Shown: positions 136-64,000 of the stretch, in pieces
How positions within the stretch are numbered: position 1 is the stretch's first letter
Layout of the letters: each line of letters starts with the position of its first letter
Source: Escherichia phage vB_EcoM-G3G7
Sequence record: MZ234040.1
Reading direction: 5' to 3' (one strand)
Length of the DNA stretch: 64,000 nt
Notes under the pieces: model-generated
Databases searched by the model: none
What the model saw: only the letters and a program-made list of their open reading frames with translations
Told to the model about the DNA's origin: nothing
Program-made: the position numbers and the translations under genes

Positions 136-1563
136 GTGGTAGAAATTATTCTTTCCCATCTCATATTTGATCAAGCTTATTTTTCAAAAGTTTGGCCATA
201 TATGGATTCAGAATATTTTGAAAGTGGTCCAGCTAAAAATACATTCAAATTAATTAAATCTCATGTTAATGAGTACCATAGCGTTCCATCTATTAATGCG
301 TTAAATGTTGCATTAGAAAATAGTTCATTTACTGAAACAGAATATTCTGGTGTAAAAACACTTATTTCGAAACTAGCCGATTCTCCAGAAGACCATAGCT
401 GGTTAGTAAAAGAAACAGAAAAATATGTTCAGCAAAGGGCGATGTTTAATGCTACGTCTAAAATAATTGAAATTCAAACTAATGCTGAGCTTCCTCCGGA
501 AAAACGAAATAAGAAAATGCCAGATGTAGGTGCTATTCCTGACATCATGCGCCAAGCATTATCAATTTCATTTGATAGTTACGTTGGTCATGATTGGATG
601 GATGACTACGAAGCACGTTGGCTATCTTATATGAATAAAGCTCGTAAGGTTCCATTTAGACTCAAAATTCTAAATAAAATTACTAAAGGTGGAGCTGAAA
701 CTGGAACACTGAACGTTTTAATGGCTGGTGTTAACGTCGGTAAGTCATTAGGTCTGTGTTCATTGGCAGCAGATTATTTGCAGCTCGGACATAATGTTCT
801 TTACATTTCCATGGAAATGGCAGAAGAAGTCTGTGCTAAGCGTATTGATGCTAATATGCTTGATGTTTCTCTTGATGACATTGATGACGGGCATATTTCT
901 TACGCTGAGTATAAAGGAAAAATGGAAAAATGGCGCGAGAAATCTACTCTCGGTCGTTTAATAGTTAAACAGTATCCTACTGGTGGAGCAGATGCTAATA
1001 CATTTCGTTCGCTTTTAAACGAATTAAAGCTCAAGAAGAATTTTGTTCCAACAATCATTATTGTCGACTATCTGGGTATTTGTAAATCTTGCCGCATTAG
1101 AGTTTACTCAGAAAATAGTTACACAACTGTTAAAGCCATTGCAGAGGAATTACGTGCTCTTGCTGTTGAAACCGAAACTGTTCTTTGGACTGCAGCACAG
1201 GTTGGTAAACAAGCTTGGGATTCTTCTGATGTTAACATGAGCGATATTGCAGAATCTGCCGGTCTTCCAGCAACAGCTGATTTTATGCTTGCGGTCATTG
1301 AAACCGAGGAGCTAGCAGCTGCTGAACAACAACTCATTAAGCAAATCAAATCACGATACGGTGATAAGAATAAATGGAATAAGTTTTTGATGGGTGTTCA
1401 AAAAGGAAATCAGAAATGGGTAGAAATTGAACAAGATTCTACTCCAACTGAAGTGAACGAAGTAGCAGGTTCACAGCAAATTCAGGCTGAACAGAATCGC
1501 TATCAAAGAAACGAATCCGCTCGAGCTCAGTTAGATGCTTTGGCAAATGAATTAAAATTTTAG
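136..1563 (+). CDS. 41: Replicative DNA helicase gp41 (DnaB-like)
   Basis: 475 aa, same length as T4 gp41; P-loop-like GVNVGKS; GTG start 5 nt after AAGGAG. Confidence 0.9.
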   Translation: MVEIILSHLIFDQAYFSKVWPYMDSEYFESGPAKNTFKLIKSHVNEYHSVPSINALNVALENSSFTETEYSGVKTLISKLADSPEDHSWLVKETEKYVQQRAMFNATSKIIEIQTNAELPPEKRNKKMPDVGAIPDIMRQALSISFDSYVGHDWMDDYEARWLSYMNKARKVPFRLKILNKITKGGAETGTLNVLMAGVNVGKSLGLCSLAADYLQLGHNVLYISMEMAEEVCAKRIDANMLDVSLDDIDDGHISYAEYKGKMEKWREKSTLGRLIVKQYPTGGADANTFRSLLNELKLKKNFVPTIIIVDYLGICKSCRIRVYSENSYTTVKAIAEELRALAVETETVLWTAAQVGKQAWDSSDVNMSDIAESAGLPATADFMLAVIETEELAAAEQQLIKQIKSRYGDKNKWNKFLMGVQKGNQKWVEIEQDSTPTEVNEVAGSQQIQAEQNRYQRNESARAQLDALANELKF

Positions 1564-2429: not shown

Positions 2430-2786
2430 ATGTATAGTTCTGAATTTTCATATTTAAAAATGGAAAAAATTTCATACGATTTTATAGATGAAAAGGTTTA
2501 TTACAGTTTCCATGAACCACGTTTTAATAGTGAGGTTGGGTTTATTGTAGTAAAAGACAATTTTATTTTAAAAATATATTCAGCATTAAAGGATTTTCAT
2601 TACGAAAATATTAACCTAAAATTTAATAAAGAAAACGTTCGTAATTGTGCAGTAACAATTACAGGAAATAAAGGCACATGTGTTATGCTATCTGATGAAA
2701 TTAATGATTTGCTAAATGATGCCGAAAAGGTTGCTATTCCATCTATTGATGACCAAATTTTTAATGCTTTTATGAATAGAGGTTAA
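2430..2786 (+). CDS. Hypothetical protein at the 61.2 position (in T4 this locus is, from memory, the anti-DarT factor adfA; unverified)
   Basis: 118-aa ORF with AGAGG RBS; assignment by synteny only. Confidence 0.45.
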   Translation: MYSSEFSYLKMEKISYDFIDEKVYYSFHEPRFNSEVGFIVVKDNFILKIYSALKDFHYENINLKFNKENVRNCAVTITGNKGTCVMLSDEINDLLNDAEKVAIPSIDDQIFNAFMNRG

Positions 2787-9066: not shown

Positions 9067-9690
9067 ATGATTATTAATCTTGCAGATGTTGAACAGTTAT
9101 CTATAAAAGCTGAAAGCGTTGATTTTCAATATGATATGTATAAAAAGGTCTGTGAAAAATTTACTGATTTTGAGCAGTCTGTTCTTTGGCAATGTATGGA
9201 AGCCAAAAAGAATGAAGCTCTTCATCGGCAGTTGAATAAAATCATTAAAAAGCATTTAACTAAATCACCTTATCAGTTATATCGTGGTATATCAAAATCA
9301 ACAGAAGAACTTATTAAAGATTTACAAGTTGGAGAAGTGTTTTCAACGAACAGGGTAGATTCATTTACTACTAGTTTACTCACAGCATGTTCTTTTTCTT
9401 ATGCTGAATATTTTACTAAAATAATACTTCGCTTAAAAACTGATAAAGCTTTTAATTATTCTGACCATATCAGCGATATTATACTTTCTTCTCCTAATAC
9501 TGAGTTCAAGTACACGTATGAAGATACTGATGGGCTAGATTCAGAGCGTACTGATAACTTAATGATGATTGTGCGTGAACAAGAATGGATGATTCCAATT
9601 GGAAAGTATAGAATAACTTCTATTTCAAAAGAAAAATTACACGATTCATTTGGAACATTTAAAGTTTATGATATTGAGGTAGTTGAATGA
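9067..9690 (+). CDS. modB: ADP-ribosyltransferase ModB
   Basis: 207 aa as T4 ModB; paralogous to the next ORF; Arg (LYRG) and Ser-x-Ser-like positions. Confidence 0.65.
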   Translation: MIINLADVEQLSIKAESVDFQYDMYKKVCEKFTDFEQSVLWQCMEAKKNEALHRQLNKIIKKHLTKSPYQLYRGISKSTEELIKDLQVGEVFSTNRVDSFTTSLLTACSFSYAEYFTKIILRLKTDKAFNYSDHISDIILSSPNTEFKYTYEDTDGLDSERTDNLMMIVREQEWMIPIGKYRITSISKEKLHDSFGTFKVYDIEVVE

Positions 9691-10289
9691 AATACTCAGT
9701 AATGCAACTAAAAGATTTTAAAATAAAATCAATGGATGCATCGGTGCGTGCTTCTATTCGTGAAGAATTACTTTCTGAAGGGTTTAATTTATCTGAAATT
9801 GAACTTTTAATTCATTGTATTACTAATAAACCAGATGACCATACTTGGTTAAATGAAATAATCAAATCTCGTTTGGAACCAAACGATAAACCTCTTTGGA
9901 GAGGTGTTCCAGCTGAGACTAAGCAGGTGTTAAATCAAGGAATTGATATTATTACATTTGATAAAGTCGTATCAGCTTCATATGATAAAAATATAGCTCT
10001 ACATTTTGCTTCCGGTTTAGAGTATAACACACAAGTTATTTTTGAATTCAAAGCTCCTATGGTATTCAATTTCCAGGAGTATGCTATAAAAGCTCTACGC
10101 TGTAAAGAATACAATCCAAACTTTAAGTTTCCGGATAGTCATCGTTATCGTAATATGGAATTAGTTTCAGATGAACAAGAAGTAATGATACCAGCTGGAA
10201 GTGTATTTAGAATTGCAGATAGATATGAGTACAAAAAGTATTCAACATACACTATCTATACTCTTGATTTTGAAGGATTTAATCTATAA
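9687..10289 (+). CDS. modA: ADP-ribosyltransferase ModA
   Basis: 200 aa as T4 ModA; LWRG motif; 4-nt overlap with modB. Confidence 0.65.
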   Translation: MKYSVMQLKDFKIKSMDASVRASIREELLSEGFNLSEIELLIHCITNKPDDHTWLNEIIKSRLEPNDKPLWRGVPAETKQVLNQGIDIITFDKVVSASYDKNIALHFASGLEYNTQVIFEFKAPMVFNFQEYAIKALRCKEYNPNFKFPDSHRYRNMELVSDEQEVMIPAGSVFRIADRYEYKKYSTYTIYTLDFEGFNL

Positions 10290-31378: not shown

Positions 31379-32176
31379 TTATACTCTTGGACCATATATT
31401 ACTCCAACATTTTGCCAAGTTGGAGCAGATCCTATGACAGCATAACCTGCTGCTCCTCCTGCACCAACCTTTAGAACTTTACCACCATCAGACCAGGCAT
31501 TTTGTCCATTTCCTCCGGCATCGCCGCCCTGGCCAGAGTGAGCATTTCCGTATTGGTAACCACCTCCTGGGGCGACGTATGAAGCTGCGCCACCTGAGTA
31601 ACCACCGCCACCACCTGGGCCAAATGGTCTTCCGCCGCCACCACCAATATCTTGCCAGTCTGCCCCTGAGTGAACACGGTAAGCAATGCCGCCACCACCG
31701 CCTCCGCCACCACAGATTACTCCACCATTGTTAATTCTTAATCGTCCACCAATGTCGTTTTGAATACAATGCCCGCCTTGTTGTCCATTACCATCTCCAC
31801 CGGAATGAGTCCATCCACCTTGTCCACCTCTACCCCACATATGAGCGCCAATAATATTTAACTGAACATATTCATTTGGTGTATCTCCGTACATGAAGAA
31901 TAAAGGAACATCTTTAGAATATGATACTAAATCACCTGTAATATTAAACACTATAGGTGCATTACCTGCCTCAAAACATCTATCTCGGAACCATTGACCA
32001 TTGAAGTTATGGTCTGCTCCAAGCGTGTGAATAATTTCTCGTGAGCGACCTGCAAATTGACTCATCCAGCAAGGAACACCCAATCTTAATTGACCAGCCG
32101 CTTGACTCATCCAGCGCTGTCCTGTTTCATTTGCGGCTGAACTTCCAATCCAACCAGGAACACCAACTACTGCCAT
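31379..32176 (-). CDS. 38: Tail-fibre tip adhesin gp38, T2-type with glycine-rich motifs
   Basis: 265 aa; poly-Gly islands ([20 protein letters not shown]) separating variable segments; directly downstream of gene 37. Confidence 0.8.
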
Positions 32177-61633: not shown

Positions 61634-61637
61634 GTTG

Positions 61638-61663
61638 AGGACTCCTTCGGGAGTCCTTTTTTA
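61638..61663 (+). terminator. Intrinsic terminator
   Basis: aggactcc-ttcg-ggagtcct followed by TTTTT; identical hairpin to 6871-6896. Confidence 0.7.
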
Positions 61664-61743: not shown

Positions 61744-62076
61744 ATGAAAACGATTAATCTGAACGCTGCAGTTAAAACTAAATGCTTCAATGGTAAATAT
61801 GATGAAACTATGTGGTTCTTAATGGCAGTTGAAGGTGATATTATTGAAGTAGAAACAACAGAAGGTATGGGAACAGATTTCACCTTTACAATTCAAGTTC
61901 ATAATTTCTTTACTGGTTGGATTTATGAATTGAATACAGTAATCGTTGGAAAAATTGAACAAAATGAATTAGGTGAATGGTATTATGTTACAGCTCGCCA
62001 ACGTGCCGAACGCTTAATTGAGAAGATGAAAAAAGTTGGTAAACTTGACATGCAGCATTGGAAAGTAGTAAAATAA
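61744..62076 (+). CDS. Hypothetical protein, 110 aa
   Basis: ORF with AAGGAGAA upstream. Confidence 0.5.
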   Translation: MKTINLNAAVKTKCFNGKYDETMWFLMAVEGDIIEVETTEGMGTDFTFTIQVHNFFTGWIYELNTVIVGKIEQNELGEWYYVTARQRAERLIEKMKKVGKLDMQHWKVVK

Positions 62077-62837: not shown

Positions 62838-63034
62838 TGAAATTCTTTTTAGGTCAAACTGTTGAATTAAAGGGAGTTGGTATACCTGGATTAATTTCTA
62901 AGGTTCTACCTCCATTTAAATGGAGTGGTATTCAAATAAAAGAGGCTTATATTGTTTCCTGGGTAGATGGAAATGAAGACCTTCGTATGGGTGATGAATT
63001 ATCTCCTATCTACGGATTAAAGGAAATAGTATGA
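62837..63034 (+). CDS. Hypothetical protein, 65 aa
   Basis: ORF only. Confidence 0.4.
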   Translation: MKFFLGQTVELKGVGIPGLISKVLPPFKWSGIQIKEAYIVSWVDGNEDLRMGDELSPIYGLKEIV

Positions 63035-63237
63035 ATATAATTAATAAGATTTTTGGAATTCAGTACATTAAGGTCACATATAAAGTAACAGATAAAAATC
63101 CATATACTGATGAACACGAAGAACCACAAGTTAAGTCTATTATATTAGAAAAGGACCCTAACTGGCCAGTTGAATTTCGTCTTCCTTGCTATGGTCATTG
63201 GGCTGATGTTGAAATTATAAGCATTGAAAATGTCTGA
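63031..63237 (+). CDS. Hypothetical protein, 68 aa
   Basis: ORF only. Confidence 0.4.
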   Translation: MNIINKIFGIQYIKVTYKVTDKNPYTDEHEEPQVKSIILEKDPNWPVEFRLPCYGHWADVEIISIENV

Positions 63238-63688
63238 GTTAGAGATTAGAAGCAATTTTAGGTGGCCATCATGTGCATTAAGTAATTTCGCCCATTGGCC
63301 TTTCGTTATGGATGGCATTCAATTTGGAGGTCTTGAAGGATTCCTCCAAGGATGCAAAGTGAAAAATGTTGAACAACAACGTCGTATATTTGGGTTATCC
63401 GGGCTTGCCGCCCAACAAGCTGGAAGGTCTTATGCAAGAGCTCAGGACCGTGGGACCCTCTTCTGGCTTGGAGTTCCATTTTCAAGATACTCCCCGGCGT
63501 GGAAAGAATTATACACAAATGCATATTTTGAAGCAGCGATCCAAAACAAGGGCTTCCGTGATGCATTACAAGCCTCGAAAGGAAAAGTTTTGAAGCACAG
63601 CATGGCTAGTGGTCTAACAAAAGATGATACAATACTAACCGAAGCTGAATTTATTGATGTGTTAAACCTATTAAGAGACTCTCTATGA
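63230..63688 (+). CDS. NADAR / YbiA-like (DUF1768) domain protein
   Basis: 152 aa from ATG 63230; SNFAHWPFVMDG...EGFLQGCK and AAQQAGRS blocks parallel the E. coli YbiA motifs SNFAAWPIKVDG...EHYFQAQK and AARMGR (recalled); locally raised GC. Confidence 0.6.
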   Translation: MSELEIRSNFRWPSCALSNFAHWPFVMDGIQFGGLEGFLQGCKVKNVEQQRRIFGLSGLAAQQAGRSYARAQDRGTLFWLGVPFSRYSPAWKELYTNAYFEAAIQNKGFRDALQASKGKVLKHSMASGLTKDDTILTEAEFIDVLNLLRDSL

Positions 63689-64000
63689 AGCCTACTATTT
63701 TAACTGATATTGATGGAGTATGTTTAAGCTGGCAATCAGGCCTTCCTTATTTTGCTCAGAAATATAATCTTCCGTTAGAACATATTTTAAAAATGATCCA
63801 GGATGAGAAATTTATTTCTCCTGGTAAACTATTTAATTGCGATGAAGAACTTGGCGTTAAGCTAATTGAAAAATACAATCGTTCGGATTTTATTCGATAC
63901 TTGTCTCCATATAAAGATGCCCTGTGTGTAATTAACAAATTAAAAGAAGATTATAATTTTGTAGCTGTTACAGCATTGGGTGATTCTATTGACGCTCTGC
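63685..64000 (+). CDS. HAD-like phosphatase / nucleotidase-like protein, partial (3' end beyond window)
   Basis: N-terminal motif ILTDIDGV (HAD motif I DxDG); runs to the window end. Confidence 0.45.
   Translation, partial: MKPTILTDIDGVCLSWQSGLPYFAQKYNLPLEHILKMIQDEKFISPGKLFNCDEELGVKLIEKYNRSDFIRYLSPYKDALCVINKLKEDYNFVAVTALGDSIDAL

Follow-up and report, generated by a model that had tools for sequence, protein, structure and literature searches.

The open reading frame at 63230..63688 of the window (the whole 64,000-nucleotide stretch of Escherichia phage vB_EcoM-G3G7, record MZ234040.1, that was analysed) is the orthologue of gene 30.3 of phage T4, known in the literature as adfN (anti-DarT factor NADAR), and we put the probability that it is a functional adfN acting against the DarTG1 defence at about 0.93. 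Its product is predicted to be a minimal, core-only ADP-ribosylglycohydrolase, with the NADAR fold assigned in this analysis and the activity by way of the T4 orthologue. The identity of the gene, the fold, the key residues and the full-length state of the allele are results of this analysis, and the activity and phenotype are taken from the literature on the 99%-identical T4 protein; the role of AdfN is already known and experimentally characterised, and is not new here. In an infected cell carrying the DarTG1 toxin-antitoxin defence, DarT1 would ADP-ribosylate guanine in the phage DNA and block its replication; AdfN would hydrolyse the guanine-ADP-ribose bond, restoring the DNA so that the phage could replicate, and would do so as an 'orphan antitoxin' that does not bind the toxin.

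The genome in the window is of the T4-like type (Tequatrovirus), and the gene lies within a tightly packed block of genes on the same strand. The gene, its neighbours and the putative transcription signals discussed here are:

63230..63688 (+): gene 30.3 (adfN), stop codon included; 152-aa phage-branch NADAR ADP-ribosylglycohydrolase
63031..63237 (+): gene 30.4, upstream, 68 aa; its last 8 nt, stop codon included, overlap the 5' end of adfN
63685..64000 (+): gene 30.2, downstream, partial; the start codon and the adfN stop overlap as ATGA, and the gene continues past the window end
62045..62074 (+): best sigma-70-like promoter match (TTGACA-18-TAAAAT, 11/12), 5' of 30.7
61637-61658: terminator-like hairpin, 3' of 30.9

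The adfN reading frame extends along the + strand from the ATG at 63230 to the TGA at 63686-63688 (152 aa). A TTG codon two codons 5' of the ATG would give a product of 154 aa; the T4 annotation agrees with the ATG. The translation contains all of the motif blocks that the initial annotation quoted for a 152-aa product (SNFAHWPFVMDG, EGFLQGCK, AAQQAGR and FEAAIQNKGFRDALQASKGKVLKH). The ORF is a real gene: it matches PF08010 (E 7e-70), has 104 database homologues, is present in 732 phage records, and encodes a protein that is conserved while the DNA diverges (86% amino acid identity at 79% nucleotide identity). The 8-nt overlap between 30.4 and adfN suggests translational coupling. The promoter match is a candidate early promoter that might serve the tightly packed run from 30.7 to 30.2, with weak support since sigma-70-like sites are no more numerous in the window than in shuffled sequence.

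A 75-aa ORF (63366..63593, +) lies inside 30.3 in another frame and corresponds to T4 30.3' ('internal translation in a different reading frame'), from which it differs by five residue changes arising from substitutions that are silent in the 30.3 frame of the overlap. It was considered as a conserved gene and rejected: its frame is interrupted by stops or lacks the start in five of the nine compared phages (internal stops in T2, ST0 and SA35RD, and loss of the ATG in IME281 and VR20) and diverges fast, with amino acid identity falling to 63% while the 30.3 frame holds 86%. It is probably an alternate-frame ORF permitted by the raised GC content and not a gene.

The adfN product and T4 gp30.3 (NP_049816) are identical at 150 of 152 positions, the differences being Q22H and I125M. 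Several Escherichia phage records carry the 1.2 kb around adfN at 100% identity, and the region has matches in 650 records. The locus follows the T4 gene order 30.4-30.3-30.2-30.1-ligase-alt; the slot between 30.4 and 30.2, 5' of the DNA ligase gene, is kept in four genera, and where protein identity has fallen to 58%, synteny still extends from 30.8 over 30.3, 30.2, 30.1 and ligase as far as alt. In related genomes the Alt ADP-ribosyltransferase gene is located just past the point where the window stops, ~3 kb downstream in the T4-like ones.

The closest GenBank records examined call the adfN product a 'hypothetical protein', and PHROGs places it in an 'unknown function' family. In the GenBank sequences of T2 (AP018813, locus L008) and ECML-134 (locus L009), where the gene occupies 401..859, the annotated 30.3 CDS begins at Met27 and yields only 126 aa; this start would drop the SNFA motif, and in both the ATG further upstream is present with its frame unbroken. 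The IME281 record (locus L014, 401..859) has no annotation for 30.3 and gives the name 'gp30.3' to the gene that follows. All three discrepancies stem from annotation and not from biology. The protein database also contains many truncated or fused products of 30.3 (P0007, P0013-P0018, P0021, P0049 and P0093; 83-154 aa, 80-100% identity), from phages including SV76, NR1, UGJNEcP4 and RPN226, and among the fused ones some are joined to PF11097 or to the families that Pfam has for 30.7 or 30.8. These could be natural frameshift alleles like that of RB69, or sequencing errors; if natural, sensitivity to DarTG1 is predicted for the phages that carry them.

The assignment of the product to the NADAR superfamily, as the initial annotation proposed, is supported by four independent lines. 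A significant match to PF08719 (NADAR) had been put forward as a check on this assignment; a Pfam search with the single adfN sequence gave no PF08719 match at E<=1, as Pfam has a separate model for the phage branch, PF08010 (Phage_30_3), and the product matches all 138 positions of that profile (1-138; E 7.4e-70), scoring 233.6 bits where the cut-off is 36 bits. An NCBIfam search with the product returned nothing, and against PDB sequences the single protein had no match better than chance level (E 0.61). With these single-sequence searches empty, the NADAR relationship is visible only through profiles, family members and structure. Within a family set of 75 full-length homologues (35-87% identical), 30 match PF08719 individually (best E 1.5e-7), and several homologues bear the JGI name 'YbiA (DUF1768 family)'. 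A profile of the 75 homologues finds E. coli YbiA (PDB 2b3w; E 0.0048), aligning LSNFA with FSNFA and sMEGFLQslK with sEHYFQaqK. The AlphaFold2 model of the product, built from the 75-homologue alignment, is confident (pLDDT 93.5, pTM 0.89) and has the NADAR fold, and the fold search and the profile searches alike confirm superfamily membership, so that the structural comparison recommended beforehand agrees with the proposed assignment. According to later papers, a 2012 bioinformatic study by de Souza and Aravind predicted that gene 30.3 encodes a phage NADAR.

Counter-defence against DarTG, which had been suggested for this ORF from its sequence, is what experiments have established for the 99%-identical T4 orthologue. 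Johannesman et al. (bioRxiv 2024, PMC11257639; Nat Commun 2025, PMC11825919) mapped the DarTG1 resistance of T2 and T4 to 30.3 through crosses with the sensitive phage RB69 and renamed the gene adfN. Deletion of adfN from T4 or T2 lowers plaquing on DarTG1 hosts by about four logs, expression of adfN rescues RB69, AdfN does not bind DarT1, and purified AdfN strips ADP-ribose off DarT1-modified DNA (PMC11825919). T4 AdfN is both necessary and sufficient against DarTG1, and is a guanine-ADP-ribose DNA glycohydrolase (PMC11825919, PMC11125620, 10.1101/2025.11.20.689424). In vitro, the T4 NADAR hydrolyses guanosine-ADPr and not thymidine-ADPr, and it does not rescue uninfected cells from DarT1 (Toxins 2024, PMC11125620); the guanosine-ADPr activity was found again in a later study (Toxins 2026, PMC12945103). 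By transposon sequencing, insertions in 30.3 are lost specifically on DarTG1 hosts (2025 preprint, 10.1101/2025.11.20.689424), and a Mol Cell 2023 paper is also among the publications on ADP-ribose removal by gp30.3/AdfN. The methods of PMC11125620 (section 4.2) give the T4 NADAR construct as 'gp30.3; residues 1-208', yet gp30.3 has 152 aa; it is gp61.2 (AdfA) that is 208 aa long, and the number may be a typo or the length of a tagged construct.

The residues and the secondary structure element on which the function of AdfN is expected to depend are encoded at the following positions:

63335..63337 (+): Glu36, codon GAA, catalytic, in the E-G-F-L-Q-x-x-K helix; invariant in the 75 homologues and aligned with the YbiA Glu
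63356..63358 (+): Lys43, codon AAA, ADP-ribose-contacting; conserved in at least 90% of the 75 homologues and aligned with the YbiA Lys
63596..63598 (+): His123, codon CAC, in the last beta-strand, hallmark of the phage branch; invariant in the 75 homologues
63641..63682 (+): C-terminal alpha-helix (residues 138-151), predicted; reading frame intact

His123 falls in a predicted strand (residues 120-123), and in published comparisons the phage NADAR branch has His in the last strand, with Glu in YbiA and Asp in DarG1 (PMC11543638, PMC11125620). The E36A and K43A substitutions impair AdfN-T4, with partial activity kept in the published version (PMC11825919). In RB69, a T insertion at position 411 of gene 30.3 causes a frameshift and loss of the C-terminal helix; a truncated T4 AdfN variant has lower activity, and the helix is needed for full activity (PMC11825919). 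The allele in the window is full-length (152 aa) and has no frameshift of the RB69 type.

The substitutions Q22H and I125M both lie near conserved motifs (Q22H beside SNFA, and I125M two residues past His123) and might be thought to weaken or inactivate this allele, with an outcome like that in RB69, but this is highly improbable. Position 22 is variable across the family (position 23 is His in most members), Met125 is the state of T2, whose AdfN is functional, and is also found in ECML-134, Mosigvirus, Dhakavirus and Gaprivervirus, and the reading frame and C-terminal helix are intact. An inactive allele was rejected on residue conservation; judged by the family alignment the two changes appear to be substitutions at tolerated positions, and the H22/M125 protein is expected to behave like T4 AdfN. 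Just as little credence attaches to a housekeeping NADAR that, like E. coli YbiA, cleaves N-glycosidic bonds of reactive riboflavin intermediates and takes no part in defence evasion: the branch-defining residue is His123 and not the Glu of the YbiA type, the gene sits in a phage context and is dispensable on E. coli K-12 and needed on DarTG1 hosts, and the DarTG1-specific phenotype of the T4 and T2 adfN deletions already contradicts this reading. It is very unlikely, if marginally less so, that AdfN serves to correct nucleic-acid ADP-ribosylation by the phage's own Alt, ModA and ModB, whether besides or instead of countering DarT. The modA and modB genes are in the window (9067-10286), the linkage to alt is retained at 58% identity with alt close downstream in T4-like genomes, and NADARs also remove guanosine-ADPr from RNA in vitro (PMC12945103), whereas 30.3 is non-essential where DarTG1 is absent, and the alt and ligase neighbourhood is missing around the more distant family members.

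A further possibility concerns how AdfN works during infection. AdfN-T4 barely rescues non-T-even phages and shows its full activity in T-even infections only; published work rules out DNA modification as the cause of this specificity and suggests a phage partner (PMC11825919). A requirement for a T-even-specific partner encoded in the conserved, probably translationally coupled block 30.4-30.3-30.2, or a variant in which AdfN also edits the nucleic-acid ADP-ribosylation by Alt and Mod, is considered unlikely, though less remote than the readings above. Family members down to 58% identity keep synteny with 30.2, ligase and alt, and more distant ones lose it, a pattern that fits a lineage-specific partner and is no evidence for one. 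A conserved partner gene behind the T-even specificity had no support outside the T4-like phages: the downstream neighbour of the distant homologue P0042 is unrelated to gp30.2, P0083 is likewise in a different context, and among the neighbours of distant homologues examined outside the T4-like phages no conserved neighbour that could be a partner was found. These two ~38%-identity homologues (P0042 at loci L003-L006, on contigs up to 308 kb, and P0083 at L016-L018) lie among many small unannotated ORFs, with NUDIX, Thg1 and AAA genes near P0042 and a GGDEF gene near P0083. The contigs, some of 300 kb or more, resemble those of jumbo phages or of other phages outside the T4 group, and since they carry members of the family, the His-type NADAR branch seems to be wider than the T4 superfamily.

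For the phage in the window, the intact adfN allele predicts resistance to DarTG1, and this prediction gains weight because the other known T-even factor, AdfA, is represented only by a half-length fragment. In the slot of T4 61.2 (AdfA), between sp and 61.1/61 (2430..2786, +), there is only a 118-aa ORF, compared with 208 aa in T4; its match to PF23813 (AdfA) has an E-value of 1.8e-8 and takes in positions 113-211 of the 211-position profile, and alignment with T4 gp61.2 (residues 74-208) shows 31% identity. With AdfA half-length and divergent, AdfN is likely the main anti-DarTG1 factor of this phage. The initial annotation had also set the gene beside ModA and ModB in an anti-defence-rich region. 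The phage does encode both proteins (ModB at 9067-9687, +, and ModA at 9687-10286, +; 96-98% identical to T4), but they lie 53 kb from adfN, and the immediate neighbourhood lends no support to that description: 30.4 has no match in Pfam, and the full-length orthologue of 30.2 has none in Pfam or NCBIfam.

The raised GC content that was noted for the ORF is real but only moderate (42.5%, against 35.5% for the window). It lies in the top 3.2% of 459-nt windows and ranks third among 104 non-overlapping ORFs (z ~2). All three codon positions are only moderately affected, with GC1, GC2 and GC3 of 0.50, 0.43 and 0.34 against means of 0.47, 0.33 and 0.25 (z 1.6 for GC2 and 1.5 for GC3). The acquisition from elsewhere that this had suggested is unlikely to be recent: the 30.3 orthologues of Tequatrovirus, Mosigvirus, Dhakavirus and Gaprivervirus occupy the same slot with 79-98% DNA identity, and in all four genera their GC content is 40-43%, against 32-40% in the flanks. 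Recent horizontal acquisition was rejected because the GC excess and the position are common to these four Tevenvirinae genera, and any acquisition would for the same reason be ancient and predate them; a published phylogeny points to DarG1-like NADARs as the likely origin of adfN (PMC11257639 / PMC11825919). The most GC-rich ORF in the window (31379..32176, -; 47.6%) is that of the tail-fibre adhesin Gp38 (PF05268, E 1e-66, plus Gp38_N), whose high first- and second-position GC (GC1 0.62, GC2 0.55) points to amino acid composition as the cause.

Among characterised NADARs, the DarG1 protein of Geobacter/Trichlorobacter lovleyi (PDB 8bat; BC4488 branch) is paired with a toxin, whereas adfN is an orphan: no DarT1 ADP-ribosyltransferase gene adjoins it, its neighbours 30.4 and 30.2 having no Pfam matches. 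The last-strand catalytic position is His in AdfN and Asp in DarG1, and AdfN is a core-only protein of 152 aa without extra N-terminal elements, compared with 219 aa for DarG1, which AdfN-T4 cannot replace in uninfected cells. E. coli YbiA (PDB 2b3w) and the Phytophthora NADAR (PDB 8bau), both of PF08719, are ~19-20% identical to the window protein and have Glu in place of its last-strand His, and the setting of YbiA is that of a riboflavin-intermediate N-glycosidase. AdfA (T4 gp61.2, PF23813), the other T-even anti-DarT1 factor, counters the same defence but is unrelated to AdfN, has no enzymatic domain and acts by binding DarT1. The closest known system is T4 AdfN itself (gp30.3), with which the window protein shares its length, genomic slot, Glu36, Lys43, His123 and C-terminal helix, and from which it differs only by Q22H and I125M.
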